Source: Carcharhinus amblyrhynchos
Lineage: Eukaryota
Direction of reading: 5' to 3'
Assembly (NCBI GenBank): GCA_965287045.1
Contig: OZ336885.1
Span: 63,488,001-63,552,000 of the forward strand
Length of the DNA stretch: 64,000 bases
Shown: positions 13,083 to 63,825 of the stretch, piece after piece
How the letters are laid out: every line of letters starts with the position of its first letter
How positions within the stretch are numbered: position 1 is the stretch's first letter
Notes under the pieces: generated by a model
What the model was told of the DNA's origin: nothing
What the model saw: the letters and a program-made list of their open reading frames with translations, nothing else
The model's database searches: none
Position numbers and translations under genes: made by a program

Positions 13083-13239
13083 TGGCCTTGTCTGTACCTT
13101 TGAAACATGATTAACTGTTAAACTCGCATTCCAACTAATATTTCGTAACATAGTGTCCTTATATGTCCTGGTTGTGAATTGAAATCCCACTCACATGACG
13201 AAGGGTCAACGGTCCGAAAGCTGGTGGCATATGCTACCA
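13083..13239 (+). mobile_element. Penelope-like-element-derived terminal repeat fragment (continues at 14908-14937)
   Basis: Resembles the abundant shark repeat recalled as ...CTCGCATTCCAA...CCCACTCACCTGACGAAGG...CCGAAAGCTAGTGGC..TGCTACCAAATAAAC...TTGTGAGACTT. Here it is split at GCTACC(A)|AAATAAAC by the CR1 insertion. Confidence 0.6.
13195..13222 (+). ncRNA. Degenerate minimal hammerhead-ribozyme-like motif
   Basis: (A)UGACGA-A-GGGUC-AAC-GGUCC-GAAA-GCU. The core boxes nUGANGA and GAAA enclose a 5-bp stem II (2 G-U pairs). The first core C is A here. Confidence 0.4.
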
Positions 13240-14907
13240 TGGAAAGGTGGTAGGAATGGAGGGTGTTAATGACATTACTGTTACTAGAGAGGTGGTGCTC
13301 GACAGACTGGAGGGGCTGATTGTGGACAAGTCCCCAGGACCGGATGGAATGCATCCGAGGGTTCTGAAAGAAATGGCGGAGGTTATAGTGGATGCCTTGG
13401 TGGTTATTTTCCAGACGTCGCTGGATTCCGGGGAAGTGCCGGAAGATTGGAAAACGGCTAATGTTACGCCGTTGTTTAAGAAGGGTGCCAGGCAAAAGGC
13501 GGGGAATTATAGGCCGGTTAGTTTAACGTCTGTGGTAGGTAAAATGTTAGAATCCGTCATTAAGGAGGAAATTGCGAGGCATCTTGAAGGGAATTGCTTG
13601 ATAGGGCGGACGCAACACGGTTTCATTAAAGGGAAGTCGTGTCTGACAAATTTACTGGAGTTCTATGAGGATGTGTCTAGGGCAGTGGATAGAGGAGAGC
13701 CGGTGGATGTGGTCTTTCTGGATTTTCAGAAGGCGTTTGACAAGGTACCTCGCAAGAGGTTATTGCAGAAGGTCAGGGGACATGGAGTTGGGGGTAGGGT
13801 GTTAGCGTGGATAGAGGATTGGCTGTCAAATAGGAGGCAGAGAGTGGGGGTCAATGGGTGCTATTCGGATTGGCGGTTGGTGACTAGTGGGGTGCCCCAG
13901 GGGTCGGTGCTGGGGCCTCAGCTATTTACCATTTATATAGATGATCTGGAGGAGGGAACCGAGTGCAGGGTGTCGAAATTTGCTGATGACACCAAGATTG
14001 GGGGAAAGGCAAATTGTGCGGAGGGTGTGGAGAGTCTGCAGAAGGATCTAGATAGGCTGGGCGAATGGGCCAGGAAATGGCAAATGGAATTTAATGTTGG
14101 CAAGTGTGAGGTGGTCCACTTTGGTAGGAAGAATGGTAGGAAGGACTATTACTTACGTGGCGAAAAACTGCAGCAGGCGACGGTGCAGAGGGACCTCGGG
14201 GTCCTTGTGCATGAGTCGCAAAAACCCAGCTTGCAGGTGCAGCAGGTGGTCAGGAAGGCGAATGGGATGCTGGCCTTCATAGCGAGGGGGATTGAATATA
14301 AAAGTAGGGAGGTCTTGCTGCAGCTGTATAGGGCATTGGTGAGGCCGCAGCTGGAGTACTGTGTGCAGTTTTGGGCGCCGCACCTGCGCAAGGATATTTT
14401 GGCCCTGGAGGGAGTGCAGAGGAGGTTTACTAGGCTGATGCCGGAGTTGAGGGGATTGAGCTATGAGGAGAGGCTGAATAAACTAGGCTTGTACTCGTTA
14501 GAGTTTAGAAGAATGAGGGGAGATCTCATTGAGACGTATAAGATGATGAATGGGATGGATAGGATAGAGGTGGAGAGACTCTTCCCGCTCAAAAAAGACA
14601 GTAGGACTAGGGGGCACAGCCTCAAGATAAAGGGGAGGCGGTTTAGAACGGAGTTGAGGAGGAACTTCTTCACTCAAAGGGTGGTGAATCTCTGGAATTC
14701 TCTGCCCGTTGAAGTGGTGGAGGCTGCCTCGCTAAATATTTTTCAGAAGCAGGTTGATGGGTTCTTGATAAGAGAGGGGATTAAGGGTTATGGGGAGAGG
14801 GCGGGAAAGTGGAACTGAGCCACAACAGATCAGCCATGATCTTATTGAATGGCGGGGCAGGCTACTACTCCTGCTCCTATTTCTTATGTTCTTATGTTCT
14901 TACGTTC
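13240..14907 (+). mobile_element. Young 5'-truncated CR1 LINE
   Basis: Uninterrupted ORF2 C-half, followed by a short 3' UTR and a (TTCTTATG)n tail ending at 14907. Base composition changes sharply at both ends. Confidence 0.95.
13247..14818 (+). CDS. CR1 ORF2 reverse transcriptase domain + C-terminus (5'-truncated, no endonuclease domain)
   Basis: 523-codon open frame with KSPGPDG.HPRVLKE, YRPVSLTS, DFQKAFDKV, GVPQGSVLGPQLF, catalytic FADD and CR1 C-terminal FFTQRVVNLWNSLP. The start is a truncation point, not a true initiation codon. Confidence 0.92.
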   Translation: MVGMEGVNDITVTREVVLDRLEGLIVDKSPGPDGMHPRVLKEMAEVIVDALVVIFQTSLDSGEVPEDWKTANVTPLFKKGARQKAGNYRPVSLTSVVGKMLESVIKEEIARHLEGNCLIGRTQHGFIKGKSCLTNLLEFYEDVSRAVDRGEPVDVVFLDFQKAFDKVPRKRLLQKVRGHGVGGRVLAWIEDWLSNRRQRVGVNGCYSDWRLVTSGVPQGSVLGPQLFTIYIDDLEEGTECRVSKFADDTKIGGKANCAEGVESLQKDLDRLGEWARKWQMEFNVGKCEVVHFGRKNGRKDYYLRGEKLQQATVQRDLGVLVHESQKPSLQVQQVVRKANGMLAFIARGIEYKSREVLLQLYRALVRPQLEYCVQFWAPHLRKDILALEGVQRRFTRLMPELRGLSYEERLNKLGLYSLEFRRMRGDLIETYKMMNGMDRIEVERLFPLKKDSRTRGHSLKIKGRRFRTELRRNFFTQRVVNLWNSLPVEVVEAASLNIFQKQVDGFLIREGIKGYGERAGKWN

Positions 14908-36514: not shown

Positions 36515-37746
36515 CTTTCAGTGAAACATTTATGTTATTTCAAATCCGTCCAAAATGTGTCTATTTAGTTGTGTTTTATATTGTCCTTACCTATTTCGTC
36601 GAATGACTTCTTGTATTTTTCGAGTTCTGCGAAGTCATTATTACATCATTTTAGTTCCCTCCTTGAAATAATTATTCGTGACGTTCCACTATAATACTGC
36701 GTGAAGAAAAGAACACAATCTTGTTCGGGCTCTTCTGCCAATATTGCTGGTGGAATTAAATTGTTGACAATGATACTTCTTTTTTTGCTAAGTCAGATCA
36801 GTGCAGGATTTTTCGCCAGACTTTTTTTTTAATTTAAGATGACTCAATAACCTTGATGCATCGCAAGGAAGGACAGAATTTCAGGAGTTCTACAATGCTG
36901 TGTACTCAATTGTAACCATTGGACGTACAACATTTCCATGATAAGAATGTAATTTGTTGCTTGGTGAAGTGTGATACCTTCAGTATGAGAGTCCTGCGTG
37001 AGGAGATATTAAATAATCGATCACTGAAGTCCATGAGTTTCAATTTCATTATGCGTATTTTTTTTGTGTAAAGGGGTTATGGTATAAAGAGGGATAGTTA
37101 ACATATATAAGCAAACATGTGTCCGTTCTTTTGTGCTATTGATAAACATAGTAATACGCAAAATATGAGAAGAAAAATGCTATTGACCTATTGAACAGTG
37201 CACCGATAGTGAATAACAACATGGCGGCGCTGACGTTTGGACGTCATTCACCATTGCAAAATGGAATATTGAGGCGAGAGATTAGGAAATAGTTCGAGAC
37301 AAAAGGTAAAGCAAAATATGGAAATAATAATGATGATTGACCGATGGGACATAAACATGCATCGAATGATTCAGGTGTTTATTTGGCGTGATCTGGGCCA
37401 CAGCATAATTGCATCAATCTTCTCTTATGTCTCCCATGACTTCATCACCCCACCCAAGTGTGAGTCAATTATATACAATCTGTGCACAATATTCCACGTG
37501 TGCCCTCAGTTATGTTTTGTGTAATTACAGCAGGGCCAAGACGCCGGAGGTGGGATGAGGCACAGTGGATGACCAGGGCGTCTTCTGTGTCTTGTCCAGC
37601 TCTTCACATTCTACGATGCTTGCAGAAACCGATTTATTGACCGTTGGATCTTCCATTGGTCTCTTCCGCTGAATCCGCCGGAATCTGTCTCCACATGCTC
37701 GGGTTGACATCTCCCTATCTCACCGAGGGTTGAGACCCGTCGTCTA

Positions 37747-37940
37747 CCCTCACCTGGTGTAGCCGGCTTGTCGAGACCGCTGTCCGGGGCGTGGCCGCTG
37801 TCGCATGCACACAGCTACTGGGAGCCACAGGTGAGAGCTAACTGCCAGGTGGGGACGAAATATGGACAACCGCTCTGAAAGGACTCCACTTGTTCCCCCG
37901 CCAAAGGTGTTACCCCTCCCTGATACCCCATACACGCCCC
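37747..37940 (-). ncRNA. HDV-like self-cleaving ribozyme fold at the RTE 5' end
   Basis: Minus strand. P1: GGGGCGU (37940-37934)/ACGCCCC (37792-37786). P2: CUCUCACCUG (37837-37828)/CAGGUGAGGG (37756-37747). P3: GGC/GCC. L3 starts UCCCAG. P1.1: CC/GG (37785-37784). P4: CGGU..GCCG. J4/2 is GCUAC, with the catalytic-C equivalent at 37762. Confidence 0.75.
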
Positions 37941-38489
37941 CAGAGGAATTCAAGTGTTGAAGAGGACAGTGATGATGATGATGATGATGATGAAGACGAC
38001 TAGAGTCAAGATGGCTGGAGGACAAGAGTCAAGACGACTGCAGGACAAGAGTCAAGACGGCTTGTCTTGCCATTGGATCTAGGTGGGAATTGGGAAGAGA
38101 GTGTGAGGCTGACGGTGCACAACTCTCCCTCACTTCAATCCAAATCAAGCGCTAGTTTCGACACCATCGTCATCAGTGTCCTCTTCAACCCTTGAAGTCC
38201 TGTGGCGATGGACGAGTGGTGAAGCAGCAGGTGTGGATACACTGGGAGCTGTAGTCACGGACCTGCACCAAGGCAGCTCAGGTCTAATGTTTTCCGCTGA
38301 CAGACACAGCAGTGGAACTCGGCGTCTACCTGGGCGACTGAGCAGCTCTCTTTAGGAAGGCATTGATCACTTCGGTAGATTGAGGATGGGGCAAGAAAAT
38401 GTGCCTCAAACATGGCCTGTTTCACGACACCCTGGCCAGTTTACCGCGGCTGGCGGGGATCCCACCTTGCGGTCGAACGCACAAAATAA

Positions 38490-41400
38490 AACACCAAATG
38501 ATACGGCTCACCACTGGCACATGGAACGTGCGCACGCTTTTGCACAACCCTACTGCAGACAGACCAGAGAGAAGAACAGCCTTAGTTTCCAGGCAGCTTG
38601 CAAGATACAACACTGGGATTGCAGCCCTGTGCGAAAATTGTCTTGCTAACGTGGATCAGTAGACTGAACCTGGAGGTGGATACACTTGTTTTTTTTTTAT
38701 TCTTCTGGAGCGGTCGAGCTAGCGATGTGCGTCGTGATGCTGGAGTTGGATTCGCCGTCATGAGTCGACTTGTTCGGAAACTTGATTCTCTACCCAAGGA
38801 TGTGAACGACCTGCTTCTGACATTCCAGCTTCTGCTACAGAAGTCAAGCTACCCTGATCAGCGGCTATGCCACTACAATGAATAACCCGGACGAGATGAA
38901 AGACAAGTTCTACGAAGAACTAGACACCCTACTATCAGCAGTGAGCAGCAACTTCAAGCTGATCTTGCTTGGCGATTTCAATGTAGGTTGTGACTCTGCA
39001 ATCTGACAGGGAGTCACTGGGAGTCACAAAGTGGGCAAGTGTAACAGTAATGGCCTACTCTTAATGAAGACCTGTGCAGGCATGACTTCCTCATCACCAA
39101 CACAACGTTCCTTCTGCCTACCCATAATAAGACCTCCTGGGTGCATCCCCGGTCTAAGCATTGGCATTTTATCAACCATGTCATTATCAGGAGAAAAGAC
39201 AGGCAGGATGTCAGAGTGACGAAGACCATGCGTGGTGCTGACTGCTGGATAAATCACAGTCTGATTGTCTCCAAAACAAGGCTCCGCATCAGACGCAAGA
39301 GGTGACCACAAGGAAGCAAGGTTATGAAAAGAATCAATGCGGCCAAGCTACAGAGCCCCAGCATAGCTTCGGCAACTGCTGAAGACTTAGAAATCAAGCT
39401 TGCTGACCTACACCTCGCAGGCAACGCTAAGGACGTCTGGGAACGCTTCCAGGATGCCATCCATACATCAGCGCTGACGACGCTCGGGCCCTCTACCCGC
39501 AAGCAGCATGATTGGTTTGAGATGAATGATGAGGAGATACAGGGTCTACTCTGTGAAAAGCACCATCTTCATCGGGCCTTTCAGAACGACTCATCTTCAG
39601 CTGCCAAGAAAAATGTTTTTACCAATGCTCGCAGGACAGTCCCGAATAAATGCAGGATAACAGTCTGAGCAGATAAAATACAAGGATTTGCTGACAGAAA
39701 CGACTTGAAACTGCTCTATGAAGCCCTCAACACTCTCTATGGACCTCAGCCTCTTTGGAGTTTCCCCGCTCCTGAGTACAGATGGTACAACTGTCATTAC
39801 AGAGAAGGCTCAGATCCTGCATAGATGGGCTGGAAACTTTGAAGCCGTCCTCAACCGACCATCATCTATTAATGATGAGGCAATAGACCTGATTCTCCAG
39901 GTTGACATCAACAGGGCCATGGACGACCCACTGGTAGTAGCCAAAGTCACTAAAGCTGTCAGCCAGCTATCCAGTGGCAACGCCCCAGGGATAGATGTCA
40001 TACCCGCAGAGATCTATAAAACTGCTGGTCCTGCCCTTACGGTGAAGCTCGCTGAGTTGTTCCAGTCCTTTTGGAAGCAAGGATGTATTCCTCAGGAACT
40101 TAAAAATGCCTGCATTGTACACCTCTACAAGAGGAAGGGCAATGGCAAGTATGCAACAACCACTTGCAATCTCGCTGCTCTCCATCACAGGAAGAAAAAA
40201 AACCCTTGCAAAAGTGCTGCTAAATCGCCTGGTCACTCATCTGGTGCTCGGTTTGCTTCCAGTGTCACAGTGTGGCTTCCACACAGGTAGTGGGACGACT
40301 GACATGATTTTTGCTGCACGGCAACTTCAGGAGAAGTGACAGGAGCAGAATCGCGAGCTCTACACAACCGTTGTTGACCTCACGAAAGCCATTGACACTA
40401 TAAGCCGACAAGGCCTGTGGACGATCATGTCAATGTTCGACTGCCCCCACCCCCTCACCCCCAAATTCATTCACATCGTACACCAGTTCCATGATGGCAT
40501 GATTGTCAGATTACTGGATGGTGGAGAATCCTCTGAGGTATTCCCAGTCACCAATGGTGTCAAACAGGGGCGTGTGCTCGCACCCACACTTTTCAGCATG
40601 ATATTTACTGTCATGCTGAATGATGCCTTCCATGACAGTGTTGCTGGAATCAGCTTCAAATACAGAGTGGAAGGGAAGGTTTTCAACCTGAGGCGACTTC
40701 AAGCTATTAGCAAAGTGAAATAGACTGTTCCGAGAGATTTCCTCTTTGCCGATGACTGTGCCATGTATGTTGGCTCGGAGCCAGGGATGCAAGTCAGTAT
40801 GAACAGATTTTCCACGGCTTGTGTCAAATTTCGACTCACCGCCAGCATTAAACTGACCAAAGTCATGCACCAGCCAGCTCCTCATGCACCGTACACAAAA
40901 CACAGAATCACAATCAAAGTGCAGAAACTACAGACAGTGGAGCAGTTCACTTATCTTGGCAGCACCCTCTCCCAAGCCCTGACTATTGATGTAGAAGTTA
41001 ACTGCAAAATAGAAAAGGAAAGTTCTCCTTTTTGGTAGACTGCGTTCCACTGTGTGGAAACGTCGAGGAATCATCCCAGCAACAAAACTGAAGGTCTACA
41101 GCGCCGTGGTACTCACTACTCTCCTGTATGCCTGTGAAACGTGGACTGCGCATCGAAGGCATGCATGATAGCTCAATTATTTCCACATGACTTGTCTTCA
41201 CAGAATATTACACATCCCTTTCCAAGACAAAGTACCAGACATTGATGTTCTCTCAAGAGCAAGTCTACCATCAGTCCACACACTGCTGATGCGATTGCGG
41301 ACTCGGTGGGCAGGTCATGTCATCTGTATGTCACACGAGCGCATATCTAAGCAGTTCCATTTTGGGCACATCTCCTCTGGAAGACACTCTCATGGAGGGC

Positions 41401-41703
41401 AGAAGAAACGTTTCAAAGACAGACGCAAAGCTTCCCCGAATCGCGTGACTTTGACACGACCACCTGGGAAACACTGACACAAAACGGCCCTACCTTGCGC
41501 TGCCTCATCCGCAAAGGTTGTCAAGCTCACGAAGCAAGCTGCACTGCGGAAGCACAATTTAAGCGCGAGCTGCACACGTCCAGGGCCACCAGCGCAGTAA
41601 CTACAGTGTCTACACAAGTCTGTCCAGCATTTGCCAGGACTTTCCGTGCCCGATTTGGCCTGATCAGTCAAATTCGGACACACTGCAACCAGCCTCAAAA
41701 TGA
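38490..41703 (+). pseudogene. Disrupted RTE endonuclease-reverse transcriptase ORF
   Basis: Motifs across shifting frames: GTWNVRTL..RPERRTALV, GVGFAV, LLGDFN, APGIDVIPAEIYK, QCGF..GTTDMIFAARQLQEK, GVKQGRVLAPTLF, FLFADD, RWAGHV, GGQKKRFKD, and a C-terminal CPAFARTFRARFGLISQIRTH zinc-finger-like motif. Many frameshifts and stops. Confidence 0.9.
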
Positions 41704-43044
41704 CGAATGGTGTTGAGGTCCTCATCGATGACGATAGGGGGACAACAATTACAACAGGGGTTCCCAACTGCTGTATTCAATGTCCTACACAATTAAACCA
41801 AGCCTGTGTACCCGTGACTCAACTTTCAAGGAACTATAAATCTTTATTCCCAGGGTCTACTTGTTTTATAACTCTTCCCAATGTCACAAAGAAACTGAGC
41901 AGGCCCTGTCCAGATTCAATTACAAGAAATGCATTGCATTATATTTATCTAAATTAAAATCAATCTTTCATTCATTGGCCCACTTGCCCAATTCATGACC
42001 ATCCTTTCGCAATCCAAGTTGACATTCTGCCCTGTAGATTATACTACCAATTTTGGTGACAACTGCAAAGGAGGAAAACATGCCCCCAAAATTTCGCATC
42101 CAAAGCATTCGTATTAATAACAATTGCGGTGAACCTAGCACCAATCCTCGAGGTTCACCGCCAGAATGACTCTACATTTTGAAAATCAATTCTCCATAAC
42201 CAGCCTCTAGCCTCTGTCGTCAAAGCAATTTTGCATCCAGTTCGTTCCTTCACTCTTGATCCCGCGAGAATTCACCTCATGAAGAAACCTCACATAAAAC
42301 ACCACCCCACTGAGGCCTTGCTAAAATCCATGCAGTCAACTTCGCTTCCCTCGTTTACCTTCCTGGATATCCCCTCAGAAATTCAATCTAATTCATGAGA
42401 CATGATTTTCCACTCACATTGCCATGCTGACTGTCCATAATCACTCCTTGCAACTCTGAATGCCTGCAGGTTTTTTTCTCCTTCAGTTACAAGTGCATAT
42501 AATAGGCCCACCAGTGTGTTGTTCACACATGCTTCCACGCCACCCTTCTTAAGCAAAGTTAATACATTTACTACCTTCCAGCCATTAGGCATCTAACTTG
42601 TTACTGCTCATTATTCAAAATTATTTGCTAGTGGACCCACAATGTTTTCCCCACGCCACCTGCAACCTTCTGGGAATCATTTGATAAGAGCCCGGTGATT
42701 TATCGAATTTGATGTGTTTTAAGACTAACAAGCATACCTTTCTCAACATTAAATACCTCTTTAGCATCTCGAGTATCTCTTGTAGATTCACATTTTGCGA
42801 AGCATGTTGATCCTTAAGAGCCCTACACTTTCCCGAGTAAAGCTTTTATCCATTGTGCATTTTCAAATGTTCTTGGATTAATTTTGTTTTGGCTTTGTCT
42901 GTCAAAGCAATCCATGACCCCATTTTGCCATCCTCATTTCCCTCATATCTCTGCTCCAACAGCCTCTATATCATTTAGGGTATCTATTTGATCACAGTTG
43001 CCTATGTTTTTCATCTGTCTCCAAAATCTTTTTGAACAGTTCTT

Positions 43045-62696: not shown

Positions 62697-62995
62697 ATGG
62701 TGGCACAATATTTAGTACCACTGCCTCACAGCGCAAGGGGCAGGGATTTGATTCCAGGCTTGGATCACGGTCTGTGTCGTGTCTGCACGTTCTCCCCGTG
62801 GCTGCGTGGCGTCCCCCCCACCCCGCGTAGTCCATTTTCTTCCCACAATCCGAAAAAATGTGCAGGTTAGGACAATTTACCATGTTGAATTCTCCTTCAG
62901 TGTCCCCGAACAGGCGACTGAGGATTTTTCACAGGAGCGTTTTTGCAGTGTTAACATAAGCCTACTTGTGATTAATAAACGAACTTTAAACTTGT
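62697..62995 (+). mobile_element. tRNA-derived V-SINE with alternative 3' tail
   Basis: GGTGGCACAAT..CACTGCCTCACAGCGC..GATTTGATTCC head, V-domain TGCACGTTCTCCCCGTGGCTGCGTGG and tail GCAGTGTTAACATAAGCCTACTTGTGATTAATAAA. Confidence 0.8.
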
Positions 62996-63825
62996 TTGTC
63001 AAGTGCGTTCTTTATCTTTGGCTGTTAATGCATAATACCGTGAGGCTGCGTTGCAGGCATCACGCCCTTTAACTCTGGTATGGAGCTCGTATCTTCCACT
63101 TCCAAATGGAGTAAAAAAAATCCAATGTATCTGCCACTTCCAACTTTGATATGATGGTTTCGCGAATTCCAGTTGATGTTTCCACAAATGGCACAATTCA
63201 CATCTGGTTCATATGCGCACTATAGGTCTGAAAATATTATATCTTGGCTGTAGCATTATTTTGTCAATTCTTTTATGTTTAACAAATGTCTAATATCCCA
63301 TATAATTTGTCTAAATGATTGCAATTCTCAAAAATGTTCTTGTCTACAAGAATTACTTGTGGGTCGAATGACCTGTTTGTGTTGTAGTCTTCTAATATAA
63401 TTATAGTTTAATACTTCATTGTTATTATCCTAATAATAGCGTGCTCATATTCTGGTGTCTGTTGATATAGAATATCTTTTGGAAATAGAGGAAACAGGAT
63501 CACTGATACATCCACTCGATATTAAATTTCCATTTGTATCAACATTACCATTCAAAGAGCAATCGTGTTCCAAGTTAATACTGAGTATTATATTGGAAGA
63601 TTGCTTTTGTTTCCGTATGCATGTAATGAATCCTCACCTGAATCATTAGATATTTTCTTGCGAACTTCAGGTTCTAAGGTGTGAAAGAAGAAAACTACTC
63701 GTGCATTACAGCACAGGAAATATTTTGCATAAAGACGATTTTCCCTTTCAACAAATGTTCATATTATTGACCAAAGTTGTACTGCTTTTAAAAACATAAG
63801 TATATCTCATGTCTCTTGAAATACA

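Follow-up and report, generated by a model that had tools for sequence, protein, structure and literature searches.

An HDV-type ribozyme fold with an extra hairpin in L3, predicted to have been self-cleaving, at the 5′ end of a shark LINE family

The window analysed here, a 64,000-nt stretch of the genome of the shark Carcharhinus amblyrhynchos, carries a rearranged LINE copy between two target-site duplications of 13 bp (37523..37535 and 41747..41759, + strand) that are identical at 12 of 13 positions. The first ~400 nt of the element, its 5′ UTR, are inverted (37537..37939, − strand) and bear a ribozyme-like fold. Next come a 121-nt filler at the inversion junction (37940..38060, − strand), assembled from UTR fragments of the element itself (about positions 390-413 and 512-542), and the remainder of the LINE (38061..41746, + strand), with the rest of the 5′ UTR, a broken endonuclease-RT frame and a short (ACA)n-type tail. 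In other full-length copies, the 37939-37537 block has the sense orientation and runs straight into the 38061 block. This joining, the one duplication around the whole and the origin of the filler together indicate a single insertion with its first 400 nt inverted. A 5′ inversion of this kind is the expected product of twin priming. The first-pass annotation had noted rearranged filler at the end of the UTR block; the filler is present, but it is an internal inversion junction and not upstream flank. The 5′ end of the RNA is thus captured at the inner junction of the inverted copy, and the fold is antisense to the copy's own ORF, which lies on the + strand.

The element has one long frame coding for an APE-type endonuclease and an RT. 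Pfam identified Exo_endo_phos in another copy, L109, and RVT_1 in the broken frame of the window. (ACA)n tails followed by target duplications of 8-15 bp were found in 37 of the 85 copies examined. Protein homologues are labelled 'craniofacial development protein 2-like', a label that we take to be linked to RTE elements. We read the LINE as an RTE element, from its architecture and from the link of these homologue names with RTE. Copy L109 also harbours, between its endonuclease and RT parts, a unit of about 50 codons repeated four times in tandem and in frame (L109:998-3298). Elsewhere in the window, an open frame of 539 codons with an RT domain (E 1e-33) belongs to another retroelement (13199-14815, +), and a weak match to the TRAPPC8 C-terminal domain (62752-63069, +; E 7.6e-5, below the curated cut-off) is possibly a host exon.

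Rearrangements of the 5′ part are not limited to the window copy. Inverted 5′ parts or such junctions are also seen in L025 and L219, and the junction sequence is found in L075, L054 and L093. In L025 and L075, a UTR piece (about element positions 512-550) immediately precedes the first G, as it does in the window; this shared piece is suggestive of template jumps from the RNA 5′ end that happened more than once. Six copies (L005, L006, L008, L010, L012 and L013) are short, at about 525-640 nt, and have target duplications; they keep the ribozyme-bearing 5′ part, and they either stop at an internal (CAT)n run or skip from that run to the final ~100 nt. They look independent, as their junctions differ.

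On the minus strand, five HDV-type helices can be paired in the nested order between 37940 and 37747, at all the positions that the first-pass annotation had given. They occupy the first ~195 nt of the element, which supports the proposal that this LINE begins with an HDV-type fold. Position names follow HDV numbering, in part as given in PMC1874588. All of the following features are on the minus strand. The upstream 5′ strand of P1 is at 37932..37939, with the predicted G1 at 37939 and, in the family, a bulged C at 37936. An internal, second P1-like strand is found at 37923..37929; it pairs with the P1 3′ strand perfectly in the family and with one mismatch here. The J1/2 domain (37840..37928) is closed by a helix, P1.2, of 10 bp in the family, 8 of which are kept here. 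Sequence pairing places the P2 5′ strand at 37827..37837, and the P3 5′ strand (37824..37826) pairs with 37795-37793. L3 comprises 28 nt (37796..37823), with U20 at 37823, C21/C22 at 37822-37821, G25 at 37818 and the insertion next; the latter includes a 19-nt hairpin (37797..37815) of 5 bp here and 6 bp in the family. The segment 37786..37795 contains the 3′ strands of P3 (37795-37793) and P1 (37792-37786). It is followed at 37764..37785 by the GG of P1.1 (37785-37784), J1.1/4 and P4 (37779-37764), by J4/2 (37759..37763), with the C75 equivalent at 37762 and a C instead of the A78 equivalent at 37759, and by the P2 3′ strand with one bulged C (37747..37758). The UCCCAG-type U20 and G25 bases, the CC/GG P1.1 and the J4/2 cytosine at 37762 noted earlier are present, and the family majority keeps them.

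A relaxed HDV descriptor allowing an L3 of up to 45 nt, as had been suggested, was composed after the site was known. It found one core only in the 64-kb window, none in 40 dinucleotide-matched 64-kb resamples scanned on both strands and none in 3000 resamples of the local 404 nt. The HDV-type fold on the minus strand is real. That it represents chance pairing in a G+C-rich UTR is very improbable. Such an explanation would fit a whole-strand folding energy no better than that of shuffles (z 0.01) and the lack of a relevant Rfam match at the site. Against it stand the empty controls and the homology with canonical folds showing compensatory changes described below. Rfam also misses the canonical relatives L125, L129 and L139, which makes its negative result uninformative.

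We collected copies of the family with a DNA search (985 candidates, 40 of them scored) and with an internal pattern (74 exact matches), and conservation was counted in 93 distinct copies. U20 is found in 91 of 93 copies and G25 in 79 of 92, the exceptions being mostly CpG decay. P3 is paired in 98% of cells, the catalytic C (C75) is conserved in 89/92 copies and A78 in 91/92. The C noted at the A78 equivalent of the window copy was confirmed, and the family base there is A. Within the fold, this copy departs from the majority at 20 places, among which are A78, the two changes in J1.1/4 relative to the family and two pairs of P1.2. It is decayed and likely inactive, and it cannot have been of use to its own ORF. 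The mean divergence of copies from the majority is 8%, mostly at CpG, and the full descriptor is satisfied by only 29 of the 93 copies, which counts against self-cleavage.

The covariation test on genomic copies proposed in the first-pass annotation yielded nothing, with no two-sided change among 21 copies picked for their closeness to the majority. The reason is that the copies descend from few sources and have decayed neutrally, at CpG. Two-sided changes seemed to be present in P4, but they are compatible with paired CpG decay and were rejected as covariation, and a lower substitution rate in the fold than downstream was discarded as ascertainment bias. The same family, boundary and core were found in four other DNA runs from four studies. 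In these, the depth drops roughly 70-fold or more in the bin just beyond the 5′ end, and no core change of 8% or more is seen except those of CpG type. No RNA run was present among the sequencing-run matches listed. A second ribozyme family was sought in the genome with two patterns, and with the descriptor in 1.73 Mb of retrieved DNA, a figure that counts both strands; only the known family or chance matches came back. Some copies are clustered: ten near-identical ones lie on one strand, 53-153 kb apart (G000:C4:70685185-71353903), likely as a tandem segmental duplication, and a similar arrangement is found on C9 at 71.8-73.2 Mb.

The L3 hairpin is a family trait, as had been proposed, with arms present in 88 of 93 copies and a folding energy of −6.6 kcal/mol for the family L3. 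A pattern leaving the length of L3 free gave 144 matches; among the 100 listed, 98 have an L3 of 28 nt, one of 26 nt and one of 29 nt. The same pattern with an L3 of 7-9 nt had no match. With an L3 of 28 nt and not the canonical 7-8 nt, the family is classed as an HDV-like variant. No compensatory change in the hairpin was found in the family copies, the 21 near-majority copies or the four other DNA runs, and this counts against our preferred interpretation, self-cleavage. So does the modelled ability of the last L3 base, a G, to pair with U20, which would break the U20-G25 contact. The hairpin loop of the window copy (37802-37810, −) contains the 6-nt self-complementary word GCAUGC, with a chance of about 6% by a rough estimate; it is a possible candidate kissing-loop site.

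We then compared the fold with sequences upstream of related elements. A metagenome scan gave 80 loci, and the upstream regions of 71 of them were scanned with a strict descriptor. Four cores were obtained (L125, L129, L136 and L139), compared with one in a threefold larger amount of shuffled sequence. With looser scans, L126, L131, L124 and a partial L194 were also recovered; another loose match, L159, with an L3 of 21 nt, was taken as chance. The credible relative cores have an L3 of 7-8 nt. Run on the 80 loci, a covariance model of the family core matched L126 (E 1.2e-9) and L125 (E 3.2e-9), in both cases with the insert absent, and L139 weakly (E 0.16). The hairpin is hence an addition to a conserved core and probably derived. 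In five relatives, 58 of 60 P2/P3 cells pair, 19 of them with changes on both sides. Two-sided changes are found in P2 of L125 and L126, in P3 of L126 and in P1 of L125; only these three P2/P3 changes and the one in P1 are firm, as the registers of L124, L129 and L136 were fitted.

L125 and L126, whose endonucleases are 63-67% identical to that of the family, have near-identical P2, P3, P1 3′ strand and J4/2. In contrast with the family, they have a 7-nt L3 and a different P4, and only one P1 strand is seen in L125; the sequence of L126 does not extend upstream beyond P2. L125 shares the layout with short linkers and a base helix, its linkers being of 1 and 2 nt. A J1/2 motif at L139:864-953 is similar in L124, L129 and L136, and L139 gives a sub-threshold Rfam match to int-alpA (E 0.019, 28.4 bits vs 35.8). 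No protein relatives were found in viral and prokaryote collections. Among 53 pattern matches there, one bacterial locus passed the loose core scan off-pattern and was taken as chance.

Element 5′ ends were mapped relative to G1, as had been advised. They stop sharply at the start of P1, with no common sequence further upstream; the 74 pattern-picked copies have background composition upstream of the 37940 equivalent. We also chose 30 loci by their endonuclease domain alone, two of which have a common flank. Element positions 1-9 are reached in 21 of them, truncation at position 35 or later affects eight and one has no match; none starts at positions 10-34. These 21 of 30 endonuclease-bearing loci (L200-L229) represent a high full-length share for a LINE. 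Among 85 copies checked at both ends, no 3′ end was located in 17 and no duplication of at least 8 bases in 31, and 37 have a defined junction. The whole 10-nt leader from G37939 is kept at 21 of these 37 junctions, in counts that include microhomology with the target duplication. The base preceding the full leader is T in 13, A in 6 and G in 2 cases (n=21). The G1 initially placed at 37940 is thus a junction base, since family copies begin at the 37939 equivalent and a G precedes it in only 2 of the 21. The commonest base before the family leader is T, and U is the best −1 base before G1 in the genomic HDV ribozyme according to PMC1874588.

The mapped end reveals an unusual P1. In the window copy, the 7-bp P1 described in the first-pass annotation is perfect, but only with the junction base and a private G at 37790; A occupies that place in 90 of 92 copies and G in only 2/92, and the family P1 is imperfect. 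The G at the mapped 5′ end can start seven P1 pairs only with a one-base bulge, while a perfect strand, overlooked when a single P1 5′ strand was proposed, lies 10 nt inside. This internal strand (37929-37923) pairs perfectly with the P1 3′ strand (−15.9 kcal/mol) and is the homologue of P1 in L125. It is also, in the predicted fold, the 5′ arm of the 10-bp helix closing a J1/2 rod of −42 kcal/mol, two bases before P2. Comparing the two registers, 37 of 38 copies have the lower energy with the terminal strand (mean difference 5.2 kcal/mol), these energies being nearest-neighbour sums without pseudoknot terms. Two observations count against self-cleavage: the chance estimate for the six extra P1.2 pairs goes no lower than about 0.017 and was made post hoc, and in predicted nested folds an alternative helix takes up the catalytic C. 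A leader variant without the bulged C, giving a perfect terminal P1, is present in 8 of 68 classifiable copies. It is found in L109, L213, L217, L222 and L309 and in the loose-end majorities of three of the four other runs (X4-X7); it does not track any subfamily.

The ribozyme might be active but cut at 37940, where P1 would have a C-A mismatch if a G precedes, at 37938, with a C-C mismatch (−8.8 kcal/mol), or at the internal 37929, with only uncut RNAs being inserted. The helix of register 37940 (−12.0 kcal/mol) equals that of 37939 with its bulged C (−12.1 kcal/mol), and the internal helix taken alone is stronger, its 5′ strand being the one homologous to the P1 of L125. However, the rarity of G at the 37940 equivalent in full-leader junctions argues against the first of these sites, and no copy starts at the internal G among the 37 defined junctions, the 74 pattern-picked copies and the 30 endonuclease-picked loci. 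We consider such other sites improbable.

RTE, Baggins, R2 and L1Tc elements are established carriers of HDV-like ribozymes at their 5′ ends (PMC6765202, PMC7761336). In the available parts of PMC6765202, they are likewise 5′-terminal on non-LTR elements, with conserved downstream and variable upstream sequences, and their release from co-transcripts is proposed; unlike in our family, no L3 hairpin is described in those parts. R2 elements provide a parallel for the P1 strands. In the account of R2 by Eickbush 2013 (PMC3774820), duplications of the P1 5′ strand extend the element 5′ ends and lengthen J1/2, as in our family. There, the internal P1 must mutate before the upstream site wins, whereas here the internal strand is perfect and predicted to be hidden, and the upstream one is imperfect. 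The same account reports that P1 mismatches are uncommon and go with loss of cleavage in vitro, and the imperfect family P1 thus counts against activity. Further literature covered comprises PMC11331408, PMC13635239, PMC6326823 and PMC6007223. Among the matches listed by our full-text literature search, none describes a hairpin in L3 of an HDV-like ribozyme; an earlier description may exist in Ruminski 2011, Webb 2009, Weinberg 2015, Riccitelli and Luptak 2013 or supplements.

The Agam-2 ribozyme reportedly sits on an RTE element. According to Webb 2016 (PMC4908430), drz-Agam-2-1 is faster when short linkers are combined with a stable P1.2 and with an extended P2. As described there, that ribozyme resembles our family in its long structured J1/2 closed by P1.2, its short linkers and a cleavage site at the first P1 base, with an extended P2 of 12 bp compared with 11 bp in the family. 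The family differs from it by the 28-nt L3 with its hairpin and by the duplicated P1 strand, the predicted working one being bulged.

We think it more likely than not that the source element self-cleaved before G37939 and that the hairpin was tolerated. This predicted cleavage is argued from the significance of the descriptor matches, the homology with L125 and L126 including two-sided changes, the conservation of the core bases and hairpin arms, the sharp boundary at 37939, the energy of the upstream register, the layout of L125 and the agreement of the four other DNA runs. The source RNA would have been cut free of host read-through transcripts just before G37939. The long J1/2 rod would fold first, its 10-bp base helix hiding the perfect internal P1 strand, and the duplicated upstream strand would then form P1 with 7 bp and one bulged C. 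Linkers of 3 and 2 nt and a P2 of 11 bp would complete an arrangement like the one that makes drz-Agam-2-1 faster. The 21 extra nt would enter after the G25/U26 positions, at a site expected to point outward in HDV, and loop out of the core. Cleavage would yield an uncapped RNA that is copied to its end, an untemplated T being added now and then at the new junction.

An internal promoter would be equally expected to give a sharp 5′ end. The fold could then be a relic or otherwise non-catalytic, the L3 insertion or the imperfect P1 having ended cleavage and the 5′ end being the promoter start; the first G could be cap-derived and the fold could be kept for RNA stability, protein binding or translation. 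Survival of the 10-nt leader upstream of the perfect P1 strand is simplest to explain if no cutting takes place, and the hairpin without covariation and the alternative nested folds fit as well. Nevertheless, we regard loss of cleavage as unlikely, as no core base or helix is disrupted in the family majority, the internal strand is predicted to be masked in the J1/2 helix, with short linkers remaining for the upstream strand, and the 5′ end coincides with the first G able to begin a 7-bp P1.

HDV-like ribozymes at LINE 5′ ends were known; what appears to be new here is a family-wide hairpin in L3, on a fold whose activity is predicted from sequence. In HDV, the active site is formed by L3, which search descriptors assume to be short. 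With about even confidence, we propose that an active HDV-type ribozyme with a sixth helix in its catalytic loop prefers an imperfect upstream P1 by hiding the perfect internal one in the J1/2 helix. Through this predicted activity, the ribozyme would have fixed where the elements of a vertebrate LINE family begin, and such L3-insert ribozymes, missed by standard descriptors, may be common in retrotransposons. If the 21-nt insertion in L3 is compatible with cutting, current searches undercount HDV-like ribozymes, and L3 would offer a new graft site for aptamers or tags in a widely used ribozyme scaffold. If the fold does not cut, the family would be a LINE that retained a ribozyme fold after changing how its 5′ end is made. 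The arrangement with two P1 strands represents a natural test of how folding order may choose a cleavage site and thereby lengthen the 5′ end of a retrotransposon.
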